Positions 30,562 through 57,548 of a DNA stretch of 64,000 bases are shown piece after piece (the stretch's first letter is position 1; each line of letters begins with the position of its first letter). The position numbers and the translations under genes were made by a program. A model generated the notes under the pieces. It had not been told where the DNA came from and did not search any database. It worked only from the letters and a program-made list of their open reading frames with translations. This DNA is from Bdellovibrio sp. (lineage in GTDB: Bacteria > Bdellovibrionota > Bdellovibrionia > Bdellovibrionales > Bdellovibrionaceae), in contig JAKFCY010000002.1 of assembly GCA_036676395.1 (NCBI GenBank), forward strand, positions 96,001 through 160,000, written 5' to 3'.

Positions 30562-32505
30562 ATGCTACATATCGATAACTTATTAGCAAAATCATACGCC
30601 GATAAAGACTATTCTGATCAGGTTCAGTGGTTGGTCAATATTTTTACGTGGCTAAGATTACCACGAGATGTTGAAAATTTAAAAATTACCCGAGAGCGCG
30701 TTTATTCAATTCGTATTAAGTATTTACTGTTTTTGTTATCACGCAATCCAGAATGGCAAAGAAATTTTGTTTCAACCGTAACTGCTATCATGCAGACGAT
30801 GTCATCAGTAAGTATCTTCACCGATGTAGGTATGTCTTTGAATTTCAGCTTTATTCAGGATTTCATTCGTCGTCTTGAAGAAAAAATTCTTCCGCAAAGT
30901 GCATTGACCGAAAACCTATCAAGCTTACTTTTGGAAGTTTTTCCGGATGAAGACGAAAGTCTTCTGGTTGATGGAATTGATGAAGAAGTTTTTGCAGCGT
31001 TATTGGCCTTGTTTCAAAATGAAGGGCGCTTAATTGGCCTTCTTAGAGATAATATTTTCTTATCTTTACATGTTCTGACGACTCAGTTGCTGTCGAATGC
31101 TTTTTCTGTTCAAAGAGAAATCGAAGGAGCTATCAAAGACAGTAAAGGCTTACCAGAAGCCAGACTACAGGAATTAGTATCGCAGAATAAAATTGAAGCT
31201 GTGCAGTCAGTGTTGCCAGAAATGTTTGCTTGCCTTGGTGCTAGTGAGAAGTTGCAGCAGCATTACTATAATTTAATGCAGGACAAAGGCATTAAAGTTG
31301 ACTGCGTTTTTCTTCTCGAATCTCAGAGACGAAGAATAGACAGGATCAGAATTTTATTGAATCTTCTCAATACGACCCAGCCGGTGGCTAAGTCAGTGCG
31401 GTTATTTATTTCGACACTGATTTTGGATATTCATCATCAAAAAAGTTTACGATCATTTTTTGCAGAGAATATGAATCTTTTAACTCAAAGAATTGTCAGT
31501 CGCAATTCTGACGTGGGTGAACATTACGTCACTACAACGTGGAGCGAGTTTAGAAGAATGTACAATTCAGCCGTAGGTGGCGGAGCTGTTACATCGGCTA
31601 CTGTGTTTTTAAAATTGGTTATTTCTTCAATCGGTATAGCGGGTTTTGCCAAGGGCTTGCTTGATAGTCTGAATTACTCTTTTAGTTTTCTTTTTATTCA
31701 AAGTCTTGGGTGCACACTGGCAACAAAACAACCTTCTGCTACGGCACCTTACTTAGCGCAGTCACTTAAACAATCGGTGTTAGAATCGCGAAAGGCTGTC
31801 ATTGCCATTCTGCGCACACAGTTTATCGCTGTTCTTGGAAATTTAACTTTGGTTTTTCCGATTTGTTTTTTTGTATCCTGGATTTTTATGTATTTTGGAA
31901 GCCCGATAATGTCGGTTTCAGAGGGCATGGCTGCCATAAGTTCTACAGATATTCTAGGGCCGTCTCCGATTTTTGCGATATTCACAGGTTTTCTTTTATT
32001 TATATCAAGTCTAATTGCTGGCTGGGTTGATAATTGGATGGCGATTCATAATGTTCCAGAAAGAGTGGCAAATCATCAAGGTATGCTTGGCTTTCTTGGA
32101 AAAGTCAGAACTAAAAAGTTTTCTTTAGTTCTTAAAAATAGTACAAACCCGTACGCAGCCAGTATCAGTCTTGGGTTTTTACTGGGTTTAGCGCCGCAGT
32201 TTATTAAATTTATGGGACTACCTTTAGAGGCACGGCACATCACTTTATCGACAGGTAATTTTGCAGCCGGCCTGCCGGTGGTGTTAGGTCAGCTTGAGGG
32301 GTTTGCGCTTGTGAACTCTATATCTGGCTTGTTATTGATCGGTATACTGAATATCGGTGTTAGCTTTGGATTGGCGCTTATGTTGGCGGCGATTTCGTCT
32401 AAAGTTAGAATCTCACTTTTGCTTAATTTACTTAAGTGGGCGGTAAAACTTATTATCATTAAGCCCTGGCTGTTAATCGTTCCCGAAAAGCCTGATGGGC
32501 AGTAG
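30562..32505 (+). CDS. Gcr-like multi-pass membrane protein (PF10136, annotated 'site-specific recombinase')
   Basis: GEHYVT, SAVGGG, LNYSFSF, TLATKQP, QFIAVLGN, LEARHITLSTG match this family; many TM helices. Confidence 0.85.
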   Translation: MLHIDNLLAKSYADKDYSDQVQWLVNIFTWLRLPRDVENLKITRERVYSIRIKYLLFLLSRNPEWQRNFVSTVTAIMQTMSSVSIFTDVGMSLNFSFIQDFIRRLEEKILPQSALTENLSSLLLEVFPDEDESLLVDGIDEEVFAALLALFQNEGRLIGLLRDNIFLSLHVLTTQLLSNAFSVQREIEGAIKDSKGLPEARLQELVSQNKIEAVQSVLPEMFACLGASEKLQQHYYNLMQDKGIKVDCVFLLESQRRRIDRIRILLNLLNTTQPVAKSVRLFISTLILDIHHQKSLRSFFAENMNLLTQRIVSRNSDVGEHYVTTTWSEFRRMYNSAVGGGAVTSATVFLKLVISSIGIAGFAKGLLDSLNYSFSFLFIQSLGCTLATKQPSATAPYLAQSLKQSVLESRKAVIAILRTQFIAVLGNLTLVFPICFFVSWIFMYFGSPIMSVSEGMAAISSTDILGPSPIFAIFTGFLLFISSLIAGWVDNWMAIHNVPERVANHQGMLGFLGKVRTKKFSLVLKNSTNPYAASISLGFLLGLAPQFIKFMGLPLEARHITLSTGNFAAGLPVVLGQLEGFALVNSISGLLLIGILNIGVSFGLALMLAAISSKVRISLLLNLLKWAVKLIIIKPWLLIVPEKPDGQ

Positions 32506-40614: not shown

Positions 40615-41481
40615 TTAGTGCAGTGATCGTAAAGCTTTGGCGATTTCTCGGTGTAAGGCTAACTCTTGTGATTGTGTTTTTTTAATTAAAAATACAGGCT
40701 GTAGGCGCTCTTTTTGATTTACCGGAATGGTCAGTTCAATCAGACGATATTCGGGTAAAACTTTTTCATTATGTAAACGCGCAATAAATTCTGGCAAGTA
40801 AGCAACGGCGTGACCTTCGCGACAAAGCTCCATGGCTGATTCCATCATGGTTACACGATACTTAATATGGCGTTGAAATTTGTGTTCAGGCCAGCCATCA
40901 AGACCTAATACTTTTGAGGGCGTACCTTCGGATGGACTAAGCGGAACAACGAAAGGTAAATCATTGACTACAGTATTTTTAAATTTTTTTAAACCAAAAG
41001 CACCCATTTTAATTTTAGTGGCTTCGATAAAATCGATTCCAGCTTTAGGAATTGGTGTATAGGTAATGCCGACATCAACATGTCCATCACTGACAGCTTG
41101 TTCTAAACGGCCCGGGCCGTATTCATGCAATTCTAAAGATTCAAGTTCAGTATGCTTTGTTAATACCGACAAAAAATAAGTTGTAAAAACCTCAAATGAA
41201 CCGATGCGGGTAGGCGTTGTGGCCGTTCCTTGACGCATTTTTTCTGGCACTTGCGACCATGCAGCTAATAGAGGTGCTGTTTCAGTTTTAAAGATATGCC
41301 CTTGTTCGGTTAAACGCAGGCCGCGGCCTTCAGCTTCAATAAGCGAGACGCCGACCTCTTGTTCGAGAAGGCGAAGTGCTTTAGACAAGGCAGGCTGCGA
41401 GATATGTAAGATTTCAGAGGCTTTGACCAGTGAACCAGTTTCGGCAAAGGTGTGAAAATAACGAACTCGATCTATATCCAT
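40615..41481 (-). CDS. LysR family transcriptional regulator
   Basis: GSLVKASEILHISQPALSKALRLLEQEVG HTH; divergent from the P450 operon. Confidence 0.95.
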   Translation of the reverse strand: MDIDRVRYFHTFAETGSLVKASEILHISQPALSKALRLLEQEVGVSLIEAEGRGLRLTEQGHIFKTETAPLLAAWSQVPEKMRQGTATTPTRIGSFEVFTTYFLSVLTKHTELESLELHEYGPGRLEQAVSDGHVDVGITYTPIPKAGIDFIEATKIKMGAFGLKKFKNTVVNDLPFVVPLSPSEGTPSKVLGLDGWPEHKFQRHIKYRVTMMESAMELCREGHAVAYLPEFIARLHNEKVLPEYRLIELTIPVNQKERLQPVFLIKKTQSQELALHREIAKALRSLH

Positions 41482-41556: not shown

Positions 41557-42759
41557 ATGAAAAACTTCCAAAATTTAAGGGCTTTTATGAAGGCACCTCT
41601 GCATTTGATGACTGAACTTGAACAAGGTCAGAAATTTGTGCGTACCCGCTTAGGGCCGAAGAGTTTTGTTTTTGTGTATGATGCAGCTTATGCGCGTGAA
41701 ATTTTAGTTCAGGCAAGTCAGAAGTTTCCACAAAATCGTATGGTGTTTGATCGTATTCAGCCGTTAACGGGCCGCAAAGGTTTAGTGCAGATGGAAGGCG
41801 AAGAATCTAAAAACACGCGCATGCAGATGCGAACACTTTTCAGCAAAGCTCCACTGGCAGATGCACAAGCCATCACTGAAAAATACACGGATGATTTAAT
41901 CGCTGAACTTAAAAAGAACCCAGCCGTTGATATTGCACAAGCCATGCATAATTTAATTTTACGTACGGCTTTAAAAATATTTTTAGATGTGGATGATCCG
42001 AAAATGGCCAGTAACATTGGGCATATGTTTGTCGAGTTAAATGAACTATGTGGCCATCGTATGCGTGCATTGCTACCGGTTCCGTTATTTATTCCGACCA
42101 AACAAACATTACGCATAAAAAAATTACGTGCAGAAATCAGAAGTCAGATTCTAAATCATTTAGAAAAAAGAACTAAAACCATGCATGGGCAGTTAGTTGA
42201 TGTTTTTGCTGATGACCCTAATTTGTTAGATCACTGCATGACTTTTATCTTTGCAGGGCATGAAACTACGGCTTCATCACTGGCCTTTACATTCTTATTA
42301 TTGGCTAAATACCCTGAATACCAAAAACTGATTCAGCAAGATCCAAAAATGGCTACTTTAGTGTATAAAGAAAGTTTACGCCTGTATCCGCCGGCTTACA
42401 TGCTTGCTAGGCAAGCTAACGTCGATACAGATTTTGGCGATTTTAAAATTAAAAAATCAGAACAAGTTATTATTGCGCTGGCGAGCATTCAGCAAAGCGA
42501 AAAATACTTTCAAGAGGCTAAACAGTTTAAGCCAGAACGTTTTGAACAAAAGTTCGAACAACCCGCAGCGTTTTTTCCATTCGGTGCAGGTGGTAAATCC
42601 TGCATCGGTGAAAGGCTTGCATATGTTGAAGCTGATGTGGTGATTAATAAAATCTGCACTCAGTTCGTAATCACCGGCAGCGCAGAAAAAATTATAGCTG
42701 ATCCAATGATTACGTTAAATGCTCGTAGCGGTCAGACGTTGGTGTTCAATGTTAGATAG
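41557..42759 (+). CDS. Cytochrome P450
   Basis: I-helix AGHETT, ExxR (ESLR), PERF, heme motif FGAGGKSCIG. Start set at ATG 41557 after AGGAG. Confidence 0.96.
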   Translation: MKNFQNLRAFMKAPLHLMTELEQGQKFVRTRLGPKSFVFVYDAAYAREILVQASQKFPQNRMVFDRIQPLTGRKGLVQMEGEESKNTRMQMRTLFSKAPLADAQAITEKYTDDLIAELKKNPAVDIAQAMHNLILRTALKIFLDVDDPKMASNIGHMFVELNELCGHRMRALLPVPLFIPTKQTLRIKKLRAEIRSQILNHLEKRTKTMHGQLVDVFADDPNLLDHCMTFIFAGHETTASSLAFTFLLLAKYPEYQKLIQQDPKMATLVYKESLRLYPPAYMLARQANVDTDFGDFKIKKSEQVIIALASIQQSEKYFQEAKQFKPERFEQKFEQPAAFFPFGAGGKSCIGERLAYVEADVVINKICTQFVITGSAEKIIADPMITLNARSGQTLVFNVR

Positions 42760-43591
42760 TTTAATTGCAGATTTTCGTGAAATTTGTCCACACCGATCAA
42801 GTGCATTGTTTCGTGAATTTTTACCTGTGGGTTATCGCCTGACAACATTATCTTCAGTGCCACAGGAATACCGCGAAATCGTGATACAGGCTAAGATTCG
42901 TTTGGGTATGCTGATCACGCTTTATGATGATTTGGCAGATCATCCAGATTATTTGAACCCTGTGCTGTTAAAAAAATTATATCGCCTAAATTTAGACTCT
43001 GATTTTACGCTGACGTTATCAATCAGCAAAGAAAATAAAATTTATCAGTTAGCACGTAAACTTTTTTCTGAACTGCGTGATCTGTTATCAGGTTTGCCGA
43101 ATTACGAACAGTTAAAAGCTATTCTTGAATTTGATATTGAGCAGTTTTATTGCTGTAACCGGTTATCAAGTTTGGCTACCGAGACGCCTGGAATTTTAAA
43201 CCTGGCCGAATCGCAAACTTTGGGGCCGCATAATATGGGAATCATAGCTGCTGGCACGATTGATTTAATGTCGGTGACAGATTTAAACGTACGTGAAATT
43301 GCCATTTGCCGCGAAATTTTTATTTTAGGTCAGCGTATGGGTCGAATCAGTAATGTTGTTTACACTTTTGAACGTGAGCAGTTAGAAGGTGATCAGACTA
43401 ATGAAATTTTTGTGCAACAAAGATTATTCGGTGGAACTCATCAATCCATTAAGGCGCAGTTAATCCAAGAACTTCATGAGTGTAGCATAGCTATTAAAAA
43501 ATTCTGTGCGCCGGCATTTAGCGCTAATCAGTACGCCCAGGGTTTTCTGGAGTTGCATCAATTGCATGCCCGCTTAGAGAGTCAAATATGA
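42749..43591 (+). CDS. Class I terpene synthase / isoprenoid-synthase-fold protein
   Basis: DDxxD (YDDLAD) and NSE/DTE-like RISNVVYTFERE followed by GDQTN; helical; start overlaps the P450 3' end. Confidence 0.72.
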   Translation: MLDSLIADFREICPHRSSALFREFLPVGYRLTTLSSVPQEYREIVIQAKIRLGMLITLYDDLADHPDYLNPVLLKKLYRLNLDSDFTLTLSISKENKIYQLARKLFSELRDLLSGLPNYEQLKAILEFDIEQFYCCNRLSSLATETPGILNLAESQTLGPHNMGIIAAGTIDLMSVTDLNVREIAICREIFILGQRMGRISNVVYTFEREQLEGDQTNEIFVQQRLFGGTHQSIKAQLIQELHECSIAIKKFCAPAFSANQYAQGFLELHQLHARLESQI

Positions 43592-44829
43592 AGGCTGTGG
43601 TTATCGGTGGTGGTATTGCAGGGCTTGCAGCTGCGCGAGTGTTAGCCGCTCATTATACTTCAGTTGTGGTGTGCGAGAAGGATTCACGAATTGGATCAGC
43701 TGATATTCGCACCGGTGCACCCCAAGGGGCTCACCTACATGTATTATTAAAAAATGGCCAGACCATTTTGCGTGAGCTGATGCCGGATGTTTATGAGCAA
43801 ATTAAAAATGGCCGCTGTAAAACCATCGATTGGGCTCAAGATACAGTTTGGGAAAATAAATTCGGCCGATTACCGCGTTATCAATCGAAAGCTAAAACTT
43901 TTTCTTTTAGTCGTGGTCTATTAGAATCCAAACTATTTGCCAGTGTGAGTAAGCTTCAAAATGTTTCAGTTATATATTCGCAAGTTTTAGAATTTACAAA
44001 ATTTGCTGACAAAATTCATAGTGTTAAATTAGACAACGGACAAACCATTGAAGCCGATCTATTTGTCTTTGCCGCTGGTGCCCAGTCAATGTTATCCGGC
44101 CTATTAGGGCAGCCGTTAGTATATGAGATGACAGGAATAGATATAACCTACTATTCAGCGCGCTTTAAAACCGAAACGGTAAATTTGCCAGATTGTATGC
44201 AATATTATTATCAAGCAGATCCGGGTATTGAATCTATCGGTGGAGTGATTTCGCCCATTGAAAATAATCAAACTATTGCAACACTCATCGAATTTGGCCA
44301 AAAACCCGCGCGCATACTTGATCAGCCAGGATTTTTAGCCAAATCTATGCAATTGCCAAATTTAGATTTTTTTTGTTCAGTGATGAAAGCTGAAATGCAG
44401 GGGGCGGTACATTGTTTTCATAAAAAAACGATGTCTAGGATTACACCGGCAGCCTATAAAAGTTTACCAGATAATCTTATTCTGATCGGTGATTCGCTAC
44501 TTTCTCTAAATCCTGTTTTTGGGCAAGGAATGACGAGCGCTTTTTTGCAAATTCGTGAATTAAAAACTCAGCTTGAAAAGAAAAGGCATGTAAACACCAA
44601 ATCTTTTCATAAAAAGGTTTTGAAAATTACGCAGACAGCTTTTGCGATGTCAAAAGCGGGGTCAATGGATCATCGTCATTATATAAAGCGCTACTTAGAT
44701 GGGTTTTTACAATTAGCCAGCAAATCACAATTACACCACCGACGATTTTTACAAGTATTGCATTTAGAACGCGGGCCACTATCTTTATTTAGTGCGCAGG
44801 TAGCTATTAAGGCGATGAGGCGTTTATGA
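43588..44829 (+). CDS. FAD-dependent monooxygenase, LasC/MonCI epoxidase-like
   Basis: GGGIAG Rossmann motif, RTGAPQGAHLHVLL, GDSLLSLNPVFGQGMT; ATGA-coupled to the upstream gene. Confidence 0.82.
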   Translation: MKAVVIGGGIAGLAAARVLAAHYTSVVVCEKDSRIGSADIRTGAPQGAHLHVLLKNGQTILRELMPDVYEQIKNGRCKTIDWAQDTVWENKFGRLPRYQSKAKTFSFSRGLLESKLFASVSKLQNVSVIYSQVLEFTKFADKIHSVKLDNGQTIEADLFVFAAGAQSMLSGLLGQPLVYEMTGIDITYYSARFKTETVNLPDCMQYYYQADPGIESIGGVISPIENNQTIATLIEFGQKPARILDQPGFLAKSMQLPNLDFFCSVMKAEMQGAVHCFHKKTMSRITPAAYKSLPDNLILIGDSLLSLNPVFGQGMTSAFLQIRELKTQLEKKRHVNTKSFHKKVLKITQTAFAMSKAGSMDHRHYIKRYLDGFLQLASKSQLHHRRFLQVLHLERGPLSLFSAQVAIKAMRRL

Positions 44830-45524
44830 TTTACCTGCATCAGTATCCACAGGCTTGGGGATTATCGAGTTTAAGTCCATTTTGTATTAAGGTTGAAGCA
44901 TTTCTGCGACAAAGTAATTTGGAGTACGAAGTCATTGTCGAGCGTAATCCGCGTCGTGGGCCTAAGGGTAAAATGCCATTTATTGTGGATAAAGGTGTGA
45001 GTATCGCAGATTCTGGTTTTATTATTTCGTCATTGATTCGCAATTATAATTTAGACAGCTATTATCCATTTAATTCTGCACAAAAAGCCGCAGCTCATGC
45101 CTTTGAAAAGATGATTGAAGAAAATTTTTATTTTATATTGTTGTATGCACGTTGGGTCGATTCAGAAAGCCGGGTAAAAACTGTATCTGAATTTACAAAG
45201 CTATTTCCACCCATCATTGGGCCGCTTTTTTTAAAACTGATTCGTAAGAATTTAACCAAACAAGCTTACTTGCAGGGAATTGGCCGGCATACGGCTTCTG
45301 AGGTGTATATAAAAGCGGAACAAGATCTTCGGGCGATCAGTGATTATATCCAAAATGAAAATTATTTTCTGGGATCTGCGTGGTCACCCGTAGATGCCAG
45401 CCTGTTCGCTTTTTTAATTACTATCTTGCGCCAGCCCGTAGCGCCGCGCTTAAAAGAGCTGGTTGAACGATTCCCCAACTTAGTGGCTTACGCTGAGCGC
45501 GAAGCCCAGAGATTATCATTGTAG
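44826..45524 (+). CDS. Glutathione S-transferase, metaxin-like/FAX class
   Basis: SLSPFCIKVEAFLR, GPKGKMPFI, ADSGFII, QGIGRH, DLRAIS...YFLG...DASLFA; ATGA-coupled. Confidence 0.88.
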   Translation: MIYLHQYPQAWGLSSLSPFCIKVEAFLRQSNLEYEVIVERNPRRGPKGKMPFIVDKGVSIADSGFIISSLIRNYNLDSYYPFNSAQKAAAHAFEKMIEENFYFILLYARWVDSESRVKTVSEFTKLFPPIIGPLFLKLIRKNLTKQAYLQGIGRHTASEVYIKAEQDLRAISDYIQNENYFLGSAWSPVDASLFAFLITILRQPVAPRLKELVERFPNLVAYAEREAQRLSL

Positions 45525-45568
45525 CTTAGAATAGCTTGCGTAGAATTACCTTTGTTTGTGGAGGTCTT

Positions 45569-46201
45569 ATGATGTTAGTTATTGGTAATAAACGTTATTC
45601 GAGCTGGTCATTGCGCCCATGGGTGTTGATGAAACATTTTGATATCCCTTTCGAAGAAAAACTAATCGCCCTTGATCAGCCAGACACCGAACAAAAGATT
45701 TTAAAATATTCTCCCTCGAAAAAAGTGCCTGCTCTTGTTGATGTCGATATCACAGTATGGGAATCGATGGCCATTATGGAATACTTAAATGAAAAATACC
45801 CACAAAAACAAATGTGGCCAGCCGATACAAAAAAACGTGCCCTCGCACGTTCGGTGGCAAATGAAATGCATTCTGGTTTTTCAGCGATGCGAAATATAAT
45901 GTCGCATGATTTGCAAAAAACTGTTCCAGGATTCGATTATTCGGCGGCGCTGACTGATGTAAATCGCGTGATGGATATTTGGCGTGAATGTTTACAGCAA
46001 TCGGGTGGGCCTTTTTTATTTGGTTCATTTAGTATTGCCGATGCGATGTATGCGCCGGTAGTGAATCGTTTTATTACTTATGATGTGAAGGTTGATACAG
46101 ATTGCGCAAAGTACATTATAGCCATGCGTGAACTGCCAGCGCATAAAGCATGGATCGAGGCAGGATTAGCTGAAAAGCTAGTCGCGCCCCTGCATATTTA
46201 A
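45569..46201 (+). CDS. Glutathione S-transferase family protein
   Basis: IGNKRYSSWSLRPW, KVPAL, WESMAIMEYL, EMHSGF, FSIADAMYAPV. Start set at ATG 45569 after GGAGG. Confidence 0.92.
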   Translation: MMLVIGNKRYSSWSLRPWVLMKHFDIPFEEKLIALDQPDTEQKILKYSPSKKVPALVDVDITVWESMAIMEYLNEKYPQKQMWPADTKKRALARSVANEMHSGFSAMRNIMSHDLQKTVPGFDYSAALTDVNRVMDIWRECLQQSGGPFLFGSFSIADAMYAPVVNRFITYDVKVDTDCAKYIIAMRELPAHKAWIEAGLAEKLVAPLHI

Positions 46202-46731
46202 TTATCTTGGTCTTTATCTTGATCTTTATCCTGCGATTGATCTTGATCCTGATCTACACGGGGCGTGCCATTTAACGTGTTCACATATATGATTGCATCA
46301 ACGGCATCGCACGGTGCTGCCGATGCATATTGGCAATCTGAAATATTAAAGCGAAAAGCATCTGCCAGCTTTGTTTCGCGGTTTATGTGTAGAGTGATCG
46401 TGTTAAATAAATGCTCTTGGCCATTAATGGCCTGCATATTCTGGCGATCAGGACTAACTAAAGTAAATAACAATTTAAAATTTGAATAAAACTCCCAGTG
46501 CCCGGTCGCAGTTTCAAGTATTTGATCAACCGAAGCTAAAAGCTTTGTGCGTTCGCTGTATTCTGGATATACGTGTCCGATTTTAAAATCGATAACAGTT
46601 GAAGAATTGACGATTTGTTTAGTGGAAGTGGCTTCAACAATTCTTTCTGAAATAGGGCTATGTTCAAAGCGGCTTTGACTACATGAAAAAACTAAAGTTG
46701 CGCCAAGTGCAGTAAGTATCGATAGTTTCAT
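46198..46731 (-). CDS. Hypothetical lipoprotein with a C-terminal DQ/DK repeat
   Basis: Lipobox VFSC, GGAGG RBS, tail DQDQDQSQDKDQDKDQDN. Confidence 0.7.
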   Translation of the reverse strand: MKLSILTALGATLVFSCSQSRFEHSPISERIVEATSTKQIVNSSTVIDFKIGHVYPEYSERTKLLASVDQILETATGHWEFYSNFKLLFTLVSPDRQNMQAINGQEHLFNTITLHINRETKLADAFRFNISDCQYASAAPCDAVDAIIYVNTLNGTPRVDQDQDQSQDKDQDKDQDN

Positions 46732-48761: not shown

Positions 48762-50480
48762 TTAGTCATCACCGCTGACTTTTAAGTCATGATATGACGG
48801 TACATCTAGCTTGCTTTTTTTATGTTTAAAGCTAACTACTTTATTTGTTGAAGGCTTAAAATTTTCAGTCTTGCGAGGTGAATAACTTGCATGTGGCGGT
48901 GCTTGTGTACTTAAACCATAGACGATAATTTGCATCTCATTAACTAACGTTGTTAACGATTCAGATTGCGCAGCTAATTCAACCGAAGCTGATGCTGAGT
49001 TTTGTGAAATCGAAGCATTTTGTTGCGTTACAGTGTCCATTTGTGACATAGCTTTCGTGATTTCTTGAATTCCGATAGATTGTTCTTTTGAAGAGCTTGA
49101 AATCTCGATGACCATTGAACTTACATCGGCCGCTTCGGCAACGATTTGCTCTAAAATTTCACCACATTGAGTGGCGATCGTGTGACCACGCTCAACTTTT
49201 TCTTTACCGATTAAAATTAAACCCTCAACACGTTCTTTAGTTTGTACTACGATGTGATTTACTTTTTTGATACTTTCTTCAAGAGTGCTAGAAATTTCTT
49301 GGGCGGCGTTGCCGCTCATTTGTGCCAGATTTCCAACTTCTTCTGCAACCACAGAGAATCCTTTTCCGTGTTCACCAGCGCGCGCTGCTTCAACCGAAGC
49401 ATTGAATGATAATAATTTAGTTTGGAATACGATATCTTTGATGACCGTAGTTTTCGCACCAATATCCATAATGACACGAGTAATTTCAGCGATATTTTTA
49501 TTTGATTCTTCAACCGCGCTCATGATTTGGCTATTACTTTCATTGATATCTGAAATCGCTGTCATCATTTCACTAACAACGCTACGGCCTTTCTGGGCAA
49601 CTTGTTGACTAGTCACTGCTTTATCACGTGATTTTTCAGCGTTGTCTGAATTTTTCGAAACCATCGCCGACAATTCTTCAACCGCTGATGAAGTTTGTTG
49701 AACGGCAGCGGCTTGTTCAGATGAAGAGCTTGATAAGCTTTCACTTGAAGTCGCAATTTCAGTAGCTGCTGAATTTACCTGAGTTGCTCCGTCAACTAGA
49801 TTTTTAGAAACTGAAACTAGTTGGTTTGAAAGACTACGAGCAAATAAAATTCCCATCGTTAAAGATAAGATAAAGCCAAATCCGACTAGTGCCATTGCTA
49901 AAATCGACTGAGCTTTACTAGTTTCTTCTACATCTTTTTTCCATTTAGCAGCTTCAGCCTGATGAAATTTGAAAAGCACTCCGATTTTATCATAAAAATC
50001 GTTGCGAATTTTACTGAAATCACCACGGTATGAGTTAGCGAATTCCATGCGGTCTGCCGGAGAACCTGACATTAAAAGAGGGATAGATTCATCAACTTTC
50101 TTTATCATGCTCTGGTAGCTTTCTATGTAAGTATCATAGAGTTCTTTTTCTCCTTCGGTAAATTCGATGGCCTCATAAGCAGTTCTGGCTGTGGCAAATC
50201 TTTGTTTTTCTTCCTCAAGACGCGCAACTAATCTTTTTTGTTCTTTTTCGTCATTACCGGGCAAAGTCATTTGTGTTAATAAGCGCAAGACTGAAACACC
50301 AGAAAAGCGCATGGTTGCTAGGCTTACAGCGTTGGGAAAATTTACTTTTACGATGTGATTATAATGCTCACTTGTGATTTTGAGGGCGTTTATGCCAACA
50401 GCGCCAACAACTAGAAGTAGAATAGAACTTATCGCAGACATAGCGATTAGTTTTGTTTTCAGACCAAATTTTTGAAACAT
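48762..50480 (-). CDS. Methyl-accepting chemotaxis protein (4HB sensor)
   Basis: Two TM helices and hairpin tip QTKLLSFNASVEAARAGEHGKGFSVVAEEV. Confidence 0.95.
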   Translation of the reverse strand: MFQKFGLKTKLIAMSAISSILLLVVGAVGINALKITSEHYNHIVKVNFPNAVSLATMRFSGVSVLRLLTQMTLPGNDEKEQKRLVARLEEEKQRFATARTAYEAIEFTEGEKELYDTYIESYQSMIKKVDESIPLLMSGSPADRMEFANSYRGDFSKIRNDFYDKIGVLFKFHQAEAAKWKKDVEETSKAQSILAMALVGFGFILSLTMGILFARSLSNQLVSVSKNLVDGATQVNSAATEIATSSESLSSSSSEQAAAVQQTSSAVEELSAMVSKNSDNAEKSRDKAVTSQQVAQKGRSVVSEMMTAISDINESNSQIMSAVEESNKNIAEITRVIMDIGAKTTVIKDIVFQTKLLSFNASVEAARAGEHGKGFSVVAEEVGNLAQMSGNAAQEISSTLEESIKKVNHIVVQTKERVEGLILIGKEKVERGHTIATQCGEILEQIVAEAADVSSMVIEISSSSKEQSIGIQEITKAMSQMDTVTQQNASISQNSASASVELAAQSESLTTLVNEMQIIVYGLSTQAPPHASYSPRKTENFKPSTNKVVSFKHKKSKLDVPSYHDLKVSGDD

Positions 50481-50563
50481 ACGTGCTCCTTTAGAGTTTT
50501 CCTATTAGTATTAGTTATCGGTTAAAATTTTTGTTAAATAGTTAAGAGATTGTGAACCAGAGT

Positions 50564-50956
50564 CTAGGCGGTCTTATTAAAGGCCTCGACCATTTTGACT
50601 TGCAAGGTTTGCATACTAAACGGTTTGACCACATAGGCAGATACGCCGACAGTTAAAGCTTCTAACACCTGAGATTTTTCTGATTCAGCAGTCACTAACA
50701 TAAATGGTAATTTAGCAAAGCGGGTGTCCGTGCGAACTTTTTTTAATAAATCTAAACCTGATCCATTCGGCATATTCCAGTCTGAAATAACTAAACCATA
50801 GTCAGCATCAGGTGCGTTGATGGCTTCCCATCCCTTTACACCGTCTTCACTTTCAGTGATATTTTCAAAACCTAAGTCTTTTAAAGATTTAGCTACAATC
50901 TTTCGCATTGTTTTCATGTCATCGATAATAAGAATCTTAGTACTAGTACTGAACAT
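50564..50956 (-). CDS. cheY: Chemotaxis response regulator CheY
   Basis: ILIIDD, SDWNMP, MLVTAE, YVVKPF. Start set at 50956 after AGGAG. Confidence 0.9.
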   Translation of the reverse strand: MFSTSTKILIIDDMKTMRKIVAKSLKDLGFENITESEDGVKGWEAINAPDADYGLVISDWNMPNGSGLDLLKKVRTDTRFAKLPFMLVTAESEKSQVLEALTVGVSAYVVKPFSMQTLQVKMVEAFNKTA

Positions 50957-50975
50957 TGGTTCTCCTTTAAATACA

Positions 50976-51806
50976 TTATTTTTTTGGATCAAATGATATT
51001 TCGACTCGAAACATACCGAATTGTGTTTTGAACGGTAGCATGATCACTTTTTGGTATGTCGTCTGACGAATTTTAATTTTTTCGCCAGATAGAATTGTTG
51101 GCAGAGCCGACTCCAACTTAAAACCGCATTGTTCATTGAGTTTTGTTTTAGCGCTGCCATAAATAATATTTAATAATTCACCGGCAGCGTCTTCGATTTC
51201 TTCATTAATTTTATCAACGACTTCGCCAAACATTGCTTCATAGATTTTAAGAAATACAACCTCTGGGAATGCCAAAGTGATCGAGCCGTTAAATTGTTCA
51301 GTCGTTAAAGAAATGACTCCCGCAATTGAAATATCATCAGATCTGGATTTTTCGTCGATATGAATAAGCTGCGGCTTTTGCGCTTCGCATTTGGTGTTAG
51401 CCATTTGTTCGAGTGTTATCAATGTGGCTTCTAAAAATGGATTAATCATTTGCACATCAAGACCAGGTTTTTTTTGGCTTACTTTAGGCAGATAACTTTC
51501 TAGATCGGCACTTACATTTAAGGCGTCAGATATGCCTGCTAATTTGAATTGTTGGCCTAATTCTAAACTTAGATTATGACTTACAATTTGTTTTCCGGAT
51601 TTGCGCATATGTTGTGATACTGTTATCAGGGCACGGTATGTCGATTGTTTGCAATGAGTCGTCTTTTGAAAATTAAAGGCGTACAGTTCAATCGTCGTCA
51701 CGGCTAGCCAGTCTTTGGCATTAACTAATAATAGATCAGAAAATTCGCTATCCAGAGTTTCTGGAAGTTCGATAGTCATGACCGGACCATTTGTCAAAAT
51801 ATTCAT
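50976..51806 (-). CDS. cheX: CheX phosphatase with N-terminal STAS-like domain
   Basis: INPFLEAT, IAGVISL, DAAGELLNIIYG, LPTILSG; N-terminal ~100 aa resemble STAS. Confidence 0.82.
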   Translation of the reverse strand: MNILTNGPVMTIELPETLDSEFSDLLLVNAKDWLAVTTIELYAFNFQKTTHCKQSTYRALITVSQHMRKSGKQIVSHNLSLELGQQFKLAGISDALNVSADLESYLPKVSQKKPGLDVQMINPFLEATLITLEQMANTKCEAQKPQLIHIDEKSRSDDISIAGVISLTTEQFNGSITLAFPEVVFLKIYEAMFGEVVDKINEEIEDAAGELLNIIYGSAKTKLNEQCGFKLESALPTILSGEKIKIRQTTYQKVIMLPFKTQFGMFRVEISFDPKK

Positions 51807-51951
51807 TTTACATGCGCCTCGAAGGTTTCATAATTTTCAATAACACTTCGGTTACTATTTATTTATAGAATCAAAGATCTTTTCCTAAGTTGCTGAAAAC
51901 AGGGGTAAAATCTAAATTATTAAGAAATTGTGAACTTAAAATATTAAATGA

Positions 51952-53619
51952 ATGTTAAAGAAGGACTGGGGCTGTTTAACTTTTACGAAGACCCGTCGAT
52001 CAAGTACATATATGTATGACAATGAAATAAAAATTGGGTTTCTGGAAGAAGGCGAACAAGTCATTGAAGAAATGGAGACATTGCTTCTTGATCTTGAACA
52101 CACTGCTGATAAAAAAGAAACATTCGACGGTATTTTTCGCGCAGTTCACAATGTAAAAGGCAGCGCTAAGGCTGTCGGCTTTGATCAACTGGGTGCTTAC
52201 TGCCATGATTTAGAAACTTATCTATTAGTTTATAAAAACGGTGAAAAACCATTAACAAAAGATGTGATTAACTATTTGTTGAATTCACGTGATGTTATTG
52301 CTGCGGCTTTTGCGACCTATAAAAAAGATTTAAACGCTGTTTTTGATTTTAATGTCGGTTCTGACAACGATGAATGCAGCGATGAAGAAAATTCGCACAT
52401 TGAAATGAATACGACAGGGCTCGTTGTTGCTAAAAAAGCTACGAATAGCAATGACACTTCAGTGCGTGTAAATTTGCAACGTGTTGATAAATTAATTAAT
52501 GCAGTTGGTGAACTGGTGGTGCTGGATTCAGTCTTACGCCAACAATGTCTGAGCTCGATGGATCAAGCTATTTTAAAAACTGTTGAACAGGCCGGAAAAA
52601 TTATCAGAGAAGTTCAGGATTTATCTATGAGCTTGCGCATGGTGCCTGTGAAACCACTTGTGCAAAAATTGCAACGCATCAGCCGTGATACTTCATCATC
52701 TGTAGAGAAAAGTGTCGATTTTCGCGTTGTTGGGGAAGATATCGAAATTGATAAAACTATTCTAGATAGTATCAGTGATCCATTGGTTCATATTATCAGA
52801 AATGCAATTGATCACGGTATCGAAGCGCCCGAAGAACGTGTCGTACAGGGAAAACCCGCAGCCGGCTTTTTAGAATTAAGTTTTTCGCAAGAAGGTGGAA
52901 AACTGGTTTTGCGTATTAAAGATGATGGTAAAGGTTTAGATCAACAGCGCATCATCGCCAAAGCCATTGAAAAAGATATTATCACTAGTGGTGATAATAT
53001 GAATGAATCACAAATTTTTGAACTTATTTTTGCGCCTGGATTTTCTACCAAAGCGGCTGTAACAGAAGTTTCAGGTCGTGGCGTTGGTATGGATGTGGTT
53101 CGTACCAGTGTTGAATCATTAGGCGGGCAAATTGAAATCACTTCAGAATTACACAAAGGCACAGAGTTTACGATTGCGTTACCGTTAACGGTAGCCATTA
53201 TCGAAGGTATGGTGGTTAAAACCACTCAAGATAATTTTATTATTCCATTTACGCAAGTTACTGAAACCGTAAAAATCACTGATGAAAATTTAACAAAGGG
53301 TTCTGAATCAGGAACTTTATTAAACCTGCGCGGTCGCTATTTGCCAGTTTATTCATTACGTGAACTATTAGGTGATAAAAAAACTGATAAAAAAAATGGT
53401 ATTGGCATTATCGCCAAATCGGCACGAGTTAATTTTGTTGTCTTAGTTGATGATGTGGTTGGCCAGCAACAGATTGTTGTGAAGCAGTTAGGTGCAGAGC
53501 TTTCAGGGTTTAAACGTTTTATCGGAAGTGGTGTCTTGGGCGATGGCAAACCAGCTTTAATTTTAGATTTAGCCCAATTAGCAGATGAAGAATTAAAAAG
53601 AGTAAAGGATGTCGGATGA
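51952..53619 (+). CDS. cheA: Chemotaxis histidine kinase CheA (likely start 52012)
   Basis: FRAVHNVKG (Hpt), LVHIIRNAIDHGIE, DDGKG, FAPGFST, SGRGVGMDVV, C-terminal CheW domain. Confidence 0.96.
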   Translation: MLKKDWGCLTFTKTRRSSTYMYDNEIKIGFLEEGEQVIEEMETLLLDLEHTADKKETFDGIFRAVHNVKGSAKAVGFDQLGAYCHDLETYLLVYKNGEKPLTKDVINYLLNSRDVIAAAFATYKKDLNAVFDFNVGSDNDECSDEENSHIEMNTTGLVVAKKATNSNDTSVRVNLQRVDKLINAVGELVVLDSVLRQQCLSSMDQAILKTVEQAGKIIREVQDLSMSLRMVPVKPLVQKLQRISRDTSSSVEKSVDFRVVGEDIEIDKTILDSISDPLVHIIRNAIDHGIEAPEERVVQGKPAAGFLELSFSQEGGKLVLRIKDDGKGLDQQRIIAKAIEKDIITSGDNMNESQIFELIFAPGFSTKAAVTEVSGRGVGMDVVRTSVESLGGQIEITSELHKGTEFTIALPLTVAIIEGMVVKTTQDNFIIPFTQVTETVKITDENLTKGSESGTLLNLRGRYLPVYSLRELLGDKKTDKKNGIGIIAKSARVNFVVLVDDVVGQQQIVVKQLGAELSGFKRFIGSGVLGDGKPALILDLAQLADEELKRVKDVG

Positions 53620-54068
53620 AAATCACACAAAAGTTTTTAAGTTTTATAGTCGGAGCCGAAAGTTTTGCAGTCCCTTTGTTAAAGGTGCGCGAAGTAATCG
53701 GAATGCCAGAAGTTACTGCGATACCACAAGCCCCTGCACATGTGGTGGGAATCATTAATTTACGCGGGCAAATTATTACAATATTTGATCTGCGCTCGCG
53801 CTTGAATTCAAGCACGAAGGGTGAACAACCTACGGTCATTATTTGCGAAATGCCCTTTGGGCAAATGGGTATCATTGTTGATATGGTATCAAGCGTACTT
53901 TCAGCCGATTCAGAACAAATTTCTGAAGTTCCACCTGGATCGCGTGCGGCAAATCATGATTTTATCACTAGCATTTATTCAAATGAAGATGTGCTAATTT
54001 TAATGTTAGATGTTGAAAAAGTGATCGGCCGCGATATGAGAGTAGCTCAAGCAACGAGTGCCGCTTAA
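53616..54068 (+). CDS. cheW: Chemotaxis coupling protein CheW
   Basis: VREVI...IPQAPAHVVGIINLRGQII, GIIVD. Confidence 0.95.
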   Translation: MKITQKFLSFIVGAESFAVPLLKVREVIGMPEVTAIPQAPAHVVGIINLRGQIITIFDLRSRLNSSTKGEQPTVIICEMPFGQMGIIVDMVSSVLSADSEQISEVPPGSRAANHDFITSIYSNEDVLILMLDVEKVIGRDMRVAQATSAA

Positions 54069-55771
54069 TGAAAAATAACATGTCAGCGATCATGTCTTTA
54101 GCCTCAGAGGTTTCAGAGGTTTCTGGCGTTCAGCTGGGTGAAAAGCAGCAAGACATGGTGATTCAGCGTTTACGCCGGCGCATGACGTTGTTAGGCTTAA
54201 AATCAGAAGCTGAATATATCGATTATTACCGAAAAAACCGCACCGAAGAATTTCGCGAGCTGATTTCGTTGTTTACAACGCATCATACGTATTTTTTTCG
54301 CGAATTTAAACATTTTGAAATTTTGCGGCAGCACACTTTGCCGCAGTTGATTCCCTTAGTGCGCAAACGTGCTGATAAAACGATTCATTTATGGTCGGCA
54401 GCCTGTAGTCGCGGCCACGAAGTTTATTCGTTAGCTATTTTTTTAGAACAGTGTTTAAAAGATTTAGCACCAGATCTGAATTTTCGCCTGCATGGAACAG
54501 ATATCGACGCCATTTCAGTCGAATTTGCCAAAAATGGAGTATTCACTAAAAAAGAAGTGGATACTATTCCGCTGGCCTACCAGACCGGAACTTTTATTCG
54601 TGGTCGTGGTGAATATGCTGATTTTACCCGTGTACATCAGCGTTTACATGAACGCTGTTCATTTGACGTCGCTAATTTAGTTGATGTTAAAACTTGGCCT
54701 AAGCAAAACTTTGATATTATTTTTTGTCGCAATGTTTTTATTTATTTTTCGGCCAGCGATATGGAAAAAACCGCCCGAAATTTTCAAAAAAGATTAAACG
54801 ATAGTGGATATTTATTTTTAGGACTGACTGAAACTCTGAACGGGTTAGATGTAAAATTAAAAAATGCAGGGCCATCGGTTTATATGCAAGCTAAAGAAAA
54901 AGCTTCGCCATTAGCGTTGGTGCCAAATCAACCAGTCATGCAAGCTCAGCCGACAGTGCAAATCAAACAGCAACCTTTAATACGCAGGGTTTTATGCGTG
55001 GATGATTCACCCACGATTTTAAGTTTACTAAAACAAACCTTTACCCGTGCCGATGGATTTGAAGTGGCCGATACAGCAAATAATGGTAAAGAAGCTTTAG
55101 ATAAAATTGCAAAAAATAAATATGACCTGATTACTTTAGATATTCATATGCCGATTATGAACGGTTTAGAGTTTTTAAAAAATAGCCAAAATCTAAATCG
55201 CCCGCCGGTGATAGTGATTAGTTCAGTCGATAGACAAGAGCAATCATTAGCTTTAGAAGCCCTGCGTTTAGGAGCGAAAGACTATGTTGAAAAACCAAGT
55301 CTTAAAACTTTTGATGCAAGTCGTGAAGAGATTTTATTTAAAGCGCGCACACTGGCAGTGGATAATAAAGTCAGCGATTTTAACAATTCATTAGATAAAA
55401 CTTTTGGTGGAAAAGAAATAGCAGCCAATGCCTATGGTCAAATTGCAGTTTTACATACTCCGCTAGATTTAGCTCGCGCTAAAAACTATCAAGCCAGCTG
55501 TACCACTCCGGCTCTTAAAAATACATTGCTGGAATTTCAGGGATTTATGCTGCCATTTGAAATAAAATCCTGTGACGCTGTTGTCATCTTAAGTGAGTTT
55601 CCAGTGCATGTCTTAGAGCAGGTTAAAAAATTAGGTAAAAAAGTTTATTTATTAGAAGATGCCTATCGGCAGTTAAAACCTCAATTGATCAAAGATTTTG
55701 AGTTGTATCCACTGGCCAGTCTTAGTTACGCCGTAAGCCGGTTTGTAAGAGAGCAAAATGATAAAAAGTAA
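54068..55771 (+). CDS. cheR: CheR methyltransferase fused to a receiver domain
   Basis: TTHHTYFFRE, WSAACSRGHEVYS, GTDID, FDIIFCRNVFIYF; then REC (VDDS, LDIHMP, DYVEKP). Confidence 0.9.
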   Translation: MKNNMSAIMSLASEVSEVSGVQLGEKQQDMVIQRLRRRMTLLGLKSEAEYIDYYRKNRTEEFRELISLFTTHHTYFFREFKHFEILRQHTLPQLIPLVRKRADKTIHLWSAACSRGHEVYSLAIFLEQCLKDLAPDLNFRLHGTDIDAISVEFAKNGVFTKKEVDTIPLAYQTGTFIRGRGEYADFTRVHQRLHERCSFDVANLVDVKTWPKQNFDIIFCRNVFIYFSASDMEKTARNFQKRLNDSGYLFLGLTETLNGLDVKLKNAGPSVYMQAKEKASPLALVPNQPVMQAQPTVQIKQQPLIRRVLCVDDSPTILSLLKQTFTRADGFEVADTANNGKEALDKIAKNKYDLITLDIHMPIMNGLEFLKNSQNLNRPPVIVISSVDRQEQSLALEALRLGAKDYVEKPSLKTFDASREEILFKARTLAVDNKVSDFNNSLDKTFGGKEIAANAYGQIAVLHTPLDLARAKNYQASCTTPALKNTLLEFQGFMLPFEIKSCDAVVILSEFPVHVLEQVKKLGKKVYLLEDAYRQLKPQLIKDFELYPLASLSYAVSRFVREQNDKK

Positions 55772-56807
55772 AATCAGAACTTTGATTGTCGATGATTCTG
55801 TAACGATTCGAAAAGTGATTCGTCATTTATTAGAATCAGATGCGCGTTTTGAAGTTGTTGGTGAAGCTGCCACACCCAGTGAAGCACTTAAAGAAATCCG
55901 CTTGCGTAATATTGATTTAATCACGATGGATTTACATTTACCGCAAAAAACCGGTGCCGATCTTATTAAGGAATATATGGCGATTCGTCCGATTCCCACG
56001 GTAGTGATTAGTTCACTCAGACCCGAAGAATCACATTTAGTTTTAGAAAGTCTAGAAAATGGAGCTGTTGATTACATTCAAAAGCCCGATCAAAAAACAA
56101 TTCTAGCTAACCGGGTTGAAATATTAGATCGCTTATTTCAAGCTGCCCAAGCAAAGCTAGTGATTAATAATAAACACACAAAACAAGAATCGCTTTTGTC
56201 ACAGACTGGCAATGGACTTTTAGTTATCGGTGCCTCGACTGGTGGAACCGAAGCAATTAAAACTTTACTAGCCCAGTTGGGATCAAAAATTCCTCCAACG
56301 CTTATTGTGCAACATATCCCGCCCTTCTTCAGTGAAGCGTTTGCAACGCGCTTAAATAAACTTTTTCCTTTCGAGGTTAAAGAAGCCAAAAATGGGGATA
56401 AAGTTCAGGAAAACCGTGCGCTGATTGCTCCTGGTGGCATGCAGATGAAGCTGGCCAAAAAAGGCCAAGATTTTTTTGTCGTTATCGAAGATAGCCCTCC
56501 GGTGAATCGTCATAAACCTTCGGTAGATTTTTTATTTGATTCAGTTAAGCGTGAATATGCCGGCCCCAAAGTTGCGGTGTTACTTACGGGTATGGGTGCG
56601 GATGGTGCAGAAGGAATGTTGAAGCTCAGATCGGTAGGCACTTACACCATTGCGCAGGACGAACAAACTTGTGTTGTGTTCGGAATGCCGCGCGAAGCAA
56701 TTAAACGAAATGCTGCAATAAAGGTGTGTGGTCTGCATGAAATGGGAACCGCTATTCACAATGCTTTTACGAGTTTACTGAGTCCAAAAAAAGGCCAGGC
56801 AAGTTGA
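55758..56807 (+). CDS. cheB: Chemotaxis methylesterase CheB
   Basis: REC plus IGASTGG, VQHIP, HKPSVD, LTGMGADGA, VFGMP. Confidence 0.96.
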   Translation: MIKSKIRTLIVDDSVTIRKVIRHLLESDARFEVVGEAATPSEALKEIRLRNIDLITMDLHLPQKTGADLIKEYMAIRPIPTVVISSLRPEESHLVLESLENGAVDYIQKPDQKTILANRVEILDRLFQAAQAKLVINNKHTKQESLLSQTGNGLLVIGASTGGTEAIKTLLAQLGSKIPPTLIVQHIPPFFSEAFATRLNKLFPFEVKEAKNGDKVQENRALIAPGGMQMKLAKKGQDFFVVIEDSPPVNRHKPSVDFLFDSVKREYAGPKVAVLLTGMGADGAEGMLKLRSVGTYTIAQDEQTCVVFGMPREAIKRNAAIKVCGLHEMGTAIHNAFTSLLSPKKGQAS

Positions 56808-56840
56808 CCAAATTTAGAAAGCTTCACATAATTAGTCTCA

Positions 56841-57548
56841 ATGAATAAAAAAAAGCTTTTAATATTAGACGACGATATCAGAATCTGTGAAGTTTTAGCG
56901 CAAGGGTTAAGTGGTGAATTCGAAATCACAACAACTCATGATGCTGACATCGCCTATCGTATTATTACAAAAAATTCGCCAGATATTATATTACTCGATA
57001 TTCATTTAGGTACTGGCTGTGGTATCAGTCTGTGTAAAAAACTTAGAGCTAACCAGCTTATTAAAAATATTCCAATTTTGATTATGACTGGGCATGGAAC
57101 CACAGATAAAATGTTACAATCATTTGACGTCGGTGCTGATGATTACATTGAAAAGCCAGTTGATCTGGTCGTTATTAAAGCCAGATTGAATGCGCGCTTA
57201 AGACGGGTGCAAGAGCTTTCACACACAGGGGTGTGTTTTGGTAATTTAAAACTATACTCTGAGCGTTTTGAAATTGAGCTGGATGGTCGCTGTGAACGTT
57301 TAAGCGAAATAGAATTTAACATGCTTAAAATTTTTCTATCGAATCCTAATAAAAAAATATCACGTATGGATATTTTAAAAACAATTTGGGATGATACGCG
57401 CGTAGAAGAGCGCACGGTTGACGTGCACATCAGTTCGTTGCGCCGTAAATTAAAAGACTTCAATCATCATATTAAAGCTTTGTACGGCAGTGGTTATATT
57501 CTGCGCCCCAGCGAAAAAAAAAGCCTATTTAAATCTTTTGAAGCGTAG
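56841..57548 (+). CDS. OmpR-family response regulator
   Basis: LDDD, LLDIHL, GADDYIEKP, RTVDVHISSLRRKL, GSGY. Confidence 0.92.
   Translation: MNKKKLLILDDDIRICEVLAQGLSGEFEITTTHDADIAYRIITKNSPDIILLDIHLGTGCGISLCKKLRANQLIKNIPILIMTGHGTTDKMLQSFDVGADDYIEKPVDLVVIKARLNARLRRVQELSHTGVCFGNLKLYSERFEIELDGRCERLSEIEFNMLKIFLSNPNKKISRMDILKTIWDDTRVEERTVDVHISSLRRKLKDFNHHIKALYGSGYILRPSEKKSLFKSFEA

Follow-up and report, generated by a model that had tools for sequence, protein, structure and literature searches.

A stretch of 64,000 nucleotides from Bdellovibrio sp. (assembly GCA_036676395.1, contig JAKFCY010000002.1, positions 96,001 to 160,000 of the forward strand), referred to here in its full length as the window, carries an operon whose second gene encodes a 280-amino-acid (aa) protein with the predicted fold of the class I terpene synthases. 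This protein, designated TS, was picked out by an earlier sequence-only reading of the window, which proposed an atypical enzyme of this fold. The conservation of its family and a structural model of the protein support TS being a real, divergent class I terpene-synthase-fold enzyme. The locus contains the following genes and, within the TS gene, the following motifs.

40615..41481, minus strand: LysR-type regulator, 288 aa, divergent to the operon (Pfam HTH_1 6.3e-19, LysR_substrate 1.6e-9).
41557..42759, plus strand: cytochrome P450 (Pfam p450 2.1e-54), with the FxxGxxxCxG haem-Cys motif in its translation.
42749..43591, plus strand: TS, the divergent class I terpene-synthase-fold enzyme, 280 aa, read from the ATG at 42749.
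42926..42940, plus strand: Asp-rich motif of TS, D60-D-L-A-D64, at the C-terminal end of predicted helix 39-64 of the AlphaFold2 model.
43229..43240, plus strand: H161-N162-M163-G164 of TS, at the predicted helix break 163/165 (helices 152-163 and 165-174).
43352..43378, plus strand: NSE/DTE-type motif of TS, N202-x3-T206-x2-R209-E210 (NVVYTFERE), in predicted helix 181-213.
43388..43405, plus strand: conserved loop of TS after helix H, G214-D215-Q-T217-N-E219, between helices 181-213 and 219-227.
43588..44829, plus strand: FAD-dependent monooxygenase (FMO), a probable olefin epoxidase, 413 aa.
44826..45524, plus strand: GST_N_4/GST_C_6 protein of glutathione S-transferase (GST) fold, 232 aa (Pfam GST_N_4 1.8e-26, GST_C_6 4e-16).
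45536..46201, plus strand: second GST, YfcF-like, 221 aa (Pfam GST_N_2 2e-14, NCBIfam PRK15113 9e-24).

The genes for P450, TS, FMO and GST are four translationally coupled cistrons, joined by overlapping stop and start codons: the P450 stop (42757-42759) overlaps the TS start by 11 nucleotides, the FMO start overlaps the TS stop (ATGA), and the GST start overlaps the FMO stop. The open reading frame (ORF) of the P450 was listed from a GTG at 41452, and its likely start is the ATG at 41557; the TS ORF has an alternative ATG at 42719 and its stop at 43591. The best solved relatives of the P450 are CYP175A1 (1.6e-24) and the carotenoid hydroxylase LUT5, and its NCBIfam matches, to pentalenene oxygenase and albaflavenone monooxygenase, are sub-threshold. 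The only significant solved relatives of the FMO are the polyether epoxidases MonCI (1e-22) and Lsd18/LasC (3e-22), aligned over residues 3-332, while its Pfam matches are DAO and FAD_binding_3 with weak Lycopene_cycl and SE. The GST matches the IsoI model of NCBIfam (NF049950) at E 1.3e-37, residues 1-229 against 1-235 of 238, with 129.7 bits, under the 300-bit equivalog cut-off; its sole solved relative is the styrene-oxide GST StyI (9qd3, 2.5e-15). The second GST is linked to the operon only in the three closest loci (L001-L003) and is probably outside the conserved core. The genes on either side of the operon have no relation to it; they encode a DTW-domain protein, a lipoprotein, a GreA-like protein and a porin, together with a chemotaxis cluster, and neither a ferredoxin nor a prenyl synthase was found among them.

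Both metal-binding motifs on which the sequence-only reading was built, DDLAD and NVVYTFERE, were found in the translation where it had placed them, with D60 and N202 142 residues apart. Its further remarks on this region also held: an Arg precedes the second motif (R199, three residues ahead of N202, in 'GRISN'), GDQTN follows it from 43388, Val occupies the position after N202 where Asp is usual, and the C-terminal RY motif is missing, there being no RY dipeptide in the C-terminal part of the window protein. The break at H161-G164 is inferred to be the equivalent of the G1/G2 kink of the G helix. The motif pair by itself was rejected as evidence. Of the 2346 stop-to-stop frames with 200 aa or more that the window's own genome contains, 2 have DDxxD followed by N-x3-[ST]-x3-E at a distance of 120-160 residues, versus a mean of 1.4 (range 0-5) in 20 residue shuffles, which is chance frequency. 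Since the bare pair is not above chance, the case for TS rests on conservation and fold.

Curated models barely register the protein, as the sequence-only reading had anticipated for standard hidden Markov models (HMMs). The single Pfam match is to PF19086 (Terpene_syn_C_2), at E 0.0039 and 17.4 bits versus a 23.7-bit cut-off, over residues 181-236; an NCBIfam scan gave no match, and PF00348 (polyprenyl_synt) was not matched at E <= 1 in the Pfam scan. A word-indexed search retrieved 73 homologues at E <= 1e-3; all names given to them by their sources are 'hypothetical protein', and just two carry a precomputed terpene-synthase Pfam domain. A 34-sequence family alignment, which was also the input of the structural model, was then used for an HMM search of 1.84 billion cluster representatives and found 635 proteins at E <= 1e-3, 378 of them at E <= 1e-30, which puts the family at no fewer than 635 clusters (50% identity). 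Some of the nearest clusters in the ESM Atlas bear the name 'terpene synthase family protein'.

Conservation was counted in an alignment of 231 sequences, made up of the window protein, the 73 homologues, the best 150 HMM representatives and profile-filtered fetched cluster members. The metal motifs are nearly invariant (D60 in 225 sequences, D61 in 225, D64 in 224, N202 in 226, T206 in 225 and E210 in 226). So are many residues elsewhere: K49 (225), D129 (229), E154 (228), N162 (210), M163 (228), D172 (229), R188 (all 231), Q195 (227), R199 (205), R209 (223), D215 (224) and H273 (192), with Thr or Ser kept at position 217 in 224. Conservation of this kind spans relatives down to about 30% identity and extends far past the two metal motifs; the whole family keeps one 19-residue signature. 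The conserved basic residues of the family are R16, K49, R138, R188, R196, R199 and R209.

The AlphaFold2 model of TS is all-alpha with twelve helices (mean pLDDT 95.1, pTM 0.93). When it was compared by VIA-align with 48,161 representative chains, the best match was selinadiene synthase 4okm (Z 21.6, root-mean-square deviation 3.1 A, 266 aligned residues, model 1-279 against chain 28-313), and the best 50 chains were without exception class I terpene-synthase-fold proteins, with Z from 21.6 to 16.6, well above the level of about 13 at which helical bundles call for caution. Foldseek against the PDB gave 34 matches at E <= 1e-3, those listed all being terpene synthases, with pentalenene synthase best (E 1e-4, TM 0.62), T-muurolol synthase next, and TM values of 0.62-0.68. 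The structural comparison that the sequence-only reading had suggested thus returned the alpha fold, matched over the full length to pentalenene and selinadiene synthases. Along the helix of the first motif the conserved residues K49, G53, I56/T57, D60 and D64 lie 3-4 or 7 positions apart, and the same spacing is seen for R188, Q195, R199, N202, T206 and R209/E210 on the helix of the second; in the model such residues would share the helix face that carries the metal ligands. Together with the full-length superposition, this periodicity lends indirect support to the condition set by the sequence-only reading, that the two motifs should face a common cavity.

Gene neighbourhoods were compared at 39 loci, one genome per species, of which L001 is the window's own contig, leaving 38 independent ones. 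A P450 gene lies directly upstream of TS at 34 loci, and a LysR homologue divergent to the operon was found at 26. A MonCI-like FMO follows TS at 17 loci, with the GST next in 15 and the other two ending at a contig edge. Type A, the P450-TS-FMO-GST arrangement of the window, is represented by 18 loci, one truncated locus included, from Bdellovibrionota, Legionella norrlandica (L033), Candidatus (Ca.) Uabimicrobium (L035) and a Myxococcales metagenome-assembled genome. In the 16 loci of type B, a P450 with about 30% identity to that of the window precedes TS, and a protein of the glutathione-dependent formaldehyde-activating (GFA) family (PF04828) of about 140 aa comes next in 14. In both main types TS is therefore accompanied by a thiol-related enzyme, the GST of type A or the GFA protein of type B. 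Three further loci (two from Nitrospirales and L036) have TS with another FAD monooxygenase and no P450, and tandem TS paralogues occur at two loci of Uabimicrobium. A maximum-likelihood tree was built from 49 rows (the 39 loci and 10 hand-picked fused or outlying forms); in it, type A of Bdellovibrionota forms one clade (16 rows, 98/95) and type B another (16 rows, 97/92), so that operon type tracks the TS clades. The gene is single-copy and accessory: of 401 genomes sampled from the phylum 22 carry it (the own genome counted), and so do 4 of 13 others from the same genus.

The regulator gives a different picture. The LysR of the window is 63-66% identical to the LysR of the type B loci L021, L023, L025 and L027, and its identity to the regulator of most type A loci (L004-L012) is just 39-42%. 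The TS proteins are related the other way round, and this mismatch suggests that regulator and operon have had separate histories. One Ca. Uabimicrobium genome (G401) offers two further observations. Its 341-aa protein P0148 (L030, L044 and L046) has Y, E, R and S in place of D60, D61, N202 and E210 and a neighbouring copy that is intact, and it is possibly a non-catalytic partner. The same genome has distant TS-like ORFs (L047:889-2757 and L048:949-2766) fused to or followed by a class I S-adenosylmethionine methyltransferase, as a 622-aa fusion and as a separate pair of 320 aa and then 281 aa; by analogy they are reminiscent of methylated-prenyl-diphosphate pathways.

Among the best 150 representatives many proteins are longer than TS and have the TS domain at the C-terminus. 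Of 35 such long forms scanned against Pfam, 10 have DXS-type domains, 8 have PilZ (one as REC-PilZ), one has a cyclic-nucleotide-binding domain and one RibB; 13 showed no recognised extra domain and two the TS domain only. In the 915-aa protein P0180 a complete DXS (DXP_synthase_N, Transket_pyr and Transketolase_C) is fused to the TS domain, and the 13 members of its 90% cluster come from several contigs and bear the source name 'DXS' and no other. P0170, P0163, P0196 and P0171 are further natural fusions, with PilZ, REC-PilZ, cyclic-nucleotide-binding and RibB domains among the kinds seen, and the RibB fusion is known from a single 2.5-kb contig. The 19-residue signature, metal motifs included, is intact in the fused forms, which make up a separate long-branched clade of the tree (100/100). 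Of 301 Planctomycetota genomes sampled, 4 contain the family. In two Planctomycetota genomes the neighbours of the gene are response regulators and large sensor kinases. At L055 (G531:C14:4000-23000) a 664-aa Transketolase_C-TS fusion is next to a FadL/TodX-type outer-membrane channel on one side and, on the other, to a 1693-aa Ser/Thr-kinase-AAA-TPR-GAF-histidine-kinase protein followed by REC and REC-HD_5 proteins. As read from domain content, the DXS fusions tie the family to isoprenoid precursor supply, and the fusions with signalling domains suggest that some members are under second-messenger control.

The window's own genome (the window being C2:96001-160000) is 99.3% complete. It encodes HMG-CoA reductase (E 4e-95), and against the DXS N-terminal model it gave only weak, partial, transketolase-like matches (31.6 bits). 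With HMG-CoA reductase present and no true DXS, its gene content indicates the mevalonate pathway as the source of its isoprenoids. The fusions to DXS and RibB had raised the idea of 4-hydroxy-3-methylbut-2-enyl diphosphate or 2-C-methyl-D-erythritol 2,4-cyclodiphosphate as a substrate, and for this organism it is ruled out by the mevalonate route. Two polyprenyl synthases (PF00348; open frames of 291 and 326 aa) are encoded away from the operon. A link to squalene or phytoene synthase was dropped, as PF00494 had no match in the genome.

On this evidence we consider it rather probable that TS is a catalytically competent, ionisation-dependent class I enzyme that opens an oxidative pathway continued by the epoxidase, the GST and the P450. 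In the proposed mechanism, a trinuclear Mg2+ cluster would be held between two facing helices, by D60 and D64 from one and by N202, T206 and E210 from the other, and through it the enzyme would bind the diphosphate group of its substrate, an allylic prenyl diphosphate. Candidate substrates are dimethylallyl (DMAPP), geranyl (GPP) and farnesyl (FPP) diphosphates, taken to be mevalonate-derived because the organism uses that pathway. Ionisation would yield a carbocation, to be quenched to a terpene olefin or alcohol; the MonCI/Lsd18-like FMO may then epoxidise a trisubstituted double bond of this product, the IsoI/StyI-like GST-fold enzyme may open the epoxide with a thiol or isomerise it, and the P450 would add a hydroxyl. 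The analysis itself shows the fold, the conservation of motifs and operon, and the families to which the neighbouring genes are related; metal binding, the class of substrate, the order of steps and the type of product are what we infer for this pathway. The near-invariant polar signature, the absence of Trp and an epoxidase of the kind that acts on linear polyenes suggest one fixed simple product, acyclic or monocyclic, from a short substrate, not the work of a polycyclic cyclase.

A number of observations weigh against this assignment. The Pfam score of TS falls under the gathering threshold of PF19086. A PDB sequence search with TS alone had a best E of 0.11, to phage terminases, which is noise, and with the family profile the best E was 0.45, none of the matches being significant. 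Canonical bacterial cyclases have a diphosphate-sensor Arg about 46 residues ahead of the Asn of the NSE motif and a C-terminal RY pair. Among the 231 sequences no column between positions 139 and 187 reaches 60% Arg plus Lys, and an RY dipeptide within the last 80 aligned residues was found in 25, the window protein not being one of them; R199, R209, Y262 and H273 are candidate substitutes on the diphosphate side. The polar and charged invariants outside the metal motifs (K49, D129, Q132, E154, N162, D172, R188 and Q195) make a core that is unusual for a carbocation cyclase and might reflect either a co-substrate of polar nature or another kind of reaction. The Pfam scan found no ferredoxin or reductase partner for the P450 in the operon. 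Glutathione synthesis had no match in the own genome for gshA (PF04262), GCS2 (PF04107) or gshB (PF02955), despite two GST-fold proteins in the window alone, and in 53 genomes of the same family a gshB survey gave mostly weak ATP-grasp matches, in 25; the thiol could, speculatively, be taken up from prey. The order of steps, moreover, is derived from family resemblance only.

TS may instead be a hemiterpene or short-chain synthase that acts as a valve or makes a signal, turning DMAPP or another short prenyl diphosphate into one small product (isoprene, prenol or methylbutenol, or a simple C10 or C15 alcohol formed by hydrolysis) that serves as a regulated overflow or as a volatile signal, with the operon handling the product as isoprene and styrene are handled, by epoxidation and then GST conjugation. 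This is unlikely in our estimate, if worth keeping in view. One 19-residue signature across the P450-operon, DXS, PilZ, REC-PilZ and cyclic-nucleotide-binding forms argues for one reaction, DXS stands at the entry of C5 precursor supply, the fused forms of Planctomycetota have signalling neighbours, and the only named relatives of the GST use isoprene epoxide or styrene oxide, both of them small; TS itself is short and has no Trp, and charged invariants on pocket-facing helix faces could floor a shallow pocket. However, epoxidases of the MonCI/Lsd18 type are known for long linear polyenes and not C5 olefins, sesqui- and diterpene synthases head the structural matches (though with tied Z scores), the match of the GST to IsoI is far under the equivalog cut-off, and there is no evident reason for a cell to make isoprene and then conjugate it. 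Extending such a role to the entire family, as one dedicated enzyme for a single small isoprenoid (for example isoprene, prenol or a simple acyclic alcohol) that is a regulated signal or a precursor-overflow valve, is a proposal to which we give low credence. If true, Planctomycetota and other phyla would switch the enzyme by c-di-GMP (PilZ), phosphorylation (REC) or cyclic nucleotides or weld it to DXS, while predatory and intracellular bacteria (Bdellovibrionota, Ca. Uabimicrobium and Legionella norrlandica) would wire it to an epoxidase-GST module like that for isoprene or styrene, which may run on prey-derived glutathione; the family could then include the long-sought bacterial hemiterpene or isoprene synthase.

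The polar core can also be read as an acceptor site. In a prenyltransferase resembling DabA on a terpene-synthase fold, the prenyl cation would be caught by a polar acceptor in the pocket; amino acids, thiols (glutathione or cysteine) and other small metabolites are candidates. K49, D129, Q132, E154, N162, D172, R188 and Q195 lie on the inferred pocket faces, DabA (6vkz) scores within about 2 Z units of the best cyclase, and the enzyme adjoining TS handles thiols in type A (GST) and in 14 of the 16 type B loci (GFA protein). DabA nevertheless does not stand out from some 50 cyclases in the structure search, no conserved gene beside TS would supply an acceptor, an olefin product explains the epoxidase and the epoxide-type GST more simply, and the own genome lacks glutathione-synthesis matches; we consider a prenyltransferase quite unlikely. 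The sequence-only reading had left cyclase, prenyltransferase and prenyl-diphosphate hydrolase side by side; among these options, the FPPS or ComQ type is now disfavoured. We regard it as very improbable that TS is a trans-prenyltransferase of the chain-elongating or ComQ-like kind, or that it binds prenyl diphosphates without catalysis, as a sensor or regulatory domain. The alpha-helical isoprenoid-synthase fold is common to FPPS-type enzymes, fusions with DXS and signalling domains could fit a precursor-sensing domain, and non-catalytic copies such as P0148, with four of the motif residues lost, do exist. Against this, TS has no PF00348 match and the two true polyprenyl synthases of the genome are elsewhere, the second metal motif is N-T-E and not a second DDxxD, the best 50 structural matches are all class I terpene synthases or proteins of that fold and not FPPS, and the metal ligands are kept in 224-226 of 231 sequences, a constancy that mere binding would not require.

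What is known already, and what is new, can be separated for the preferred reading of TS as an ionisation-dependent synthase. Its fold and catalytic principle are known. New are an unnamed family under curated thresholds, with non-canonical residues on the diphosphate side and a polar core; operons that hold an epoxidase-GST pair or a GFA protein; and fusions to DXS and to input domains for c-di-GMP, phosphorylation and cyclic nucleotides. A full-text literature search, with subscription journals mostly outside it so that prior work may exist, found no paper on the family, its operon, or PilZ-TS or DXS-TS fusions. To our knowledge, next to nothing has been explored of the terpene synthases in predatory bacteria, Bdellovibrionota included. 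The finding marks out a large terpene-synthase-fold family with sharp limits, whose members are labelled 'hypothetical' or, in the case of the fusion, 'DXS'. Its contexts (P450 with polyether-type epoxidase and epoxide-type GST, P450 with GFA protein, and second-messenger domains) point to terpenoid chemistry undescribed in bacteria; they suggest that the products are oxygenated terpenoids, possibly conjugated to thiols, and that second messengers control a terpene synthase.

Elsewhere in the window, the following features were recorded; the chemotaxis cluster lies downstream of the operon and is followed, in the same region, by an OmpR-type regulator and a 7TMR-DISM sensor kinase.

26253-30452, plus strand: ORF of 1400 aa with no Pfam match at E <= 1e-5.
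30562-32502, plus strand: full-length 'SpecificRecomb' (PF10136) protein after the 1400-aa ORF (E 2e-143).
46198-46731, minus strand: probable lipoprotein, 177 aa, with a C-terminal acidic D/Q/K repeat (…DQDQDQSQDKDQDKDQDN) and no Pfam match.
48765-59399: complete chemotaxis cluster (methyl-accepting chemotaxis protein, CheY-like REC, CheX, CheA, CheW, CheR-REC fusion and CheB).

How does TS compare with characterised enzymes? With the bacterial class I cyclases selinadiene synthase (4okm), T-muurolol synthase (9hqd) and pentalenene synthase (1ps1/9c7k) it shares the fold (Z 21.6, 21.3 and 17.2, respectively) and, on the expected pair of helices, the motifs DDxxD and N-x3-(S/T)-x3-E with a spacing of about 140 residues. 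However, the identity to these cyclases is just 8-15%, and the N-terminus is about 25 residues shorter than that of 4okm, the model beginning at 4okm residue 28. Unlike canonical cyclases, TS has Val after the motif Asn, not a single Trp, and the extra invariants K49, D129, E154, N162-M163, D172, R188, Q195 and D215. The short class I diterpene synthases Sat1646 and Stt4548 (7e4n/7e4o and 7e4m) are similar in size (about 290 aa) and structurally close (Z 21.1). Sat1646, a pimaradiene synthase (7e4n), is the only solved protein of this kind touched by the family profile in sequence, at a non-significant E of 2.4; the aligned stretch reads Q-R-x-x-R-x-S-N-x-x-x-(S/T)-x-E-R-(D/E)-x-x-x-G-D and covers Q195-R196, R199, N202, E210 and the G-D of TS, with the second metal motif of TS set against N-D-x-x-S-x-x-x-E in Sat1646, so that part of the 'extra' signature has a precedent there. 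Sat1646 and Stt4548 act on copalyl diphosphate delivered by a class II partner. No class II cyclase was found in the operon or the examined flanks, the rest of the genome not having been searched for one.

The fold of TS is also that of the N-prenyltransferase DabA (6vkz, Z 19.7), PhmA (8kih, Z 19.2) and the Orpheovirus terpene synthase (8jw3, Z 18.9), which are precedents for divergent proteins of this fold that escape sequence models or use polar co-substrates. No specific sequence relation of TS to any of the three was detected and, unlike PhmA, the TS family keeps an intact N-T-E. Enzymes of the FPPS/ComQ type are expected to have two DDxxD-type motifs and a PF00348 match, whereas the second motif of TS is N-T-E and PF00348 is unmatched. 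With respect to the pathway, the modules of IsoI/StyI and MonCI/Lsd18 would follow the same logic as the operon, from olefin to epoxide to thiol adduct, although the operon flavoenzyme is about 100 aa shorter than MonCI. Unlike in isoprene and styrene catabolism, the module in the operon is coupled to TS and a P450, and the alkene would be made by the cell and not taken up.

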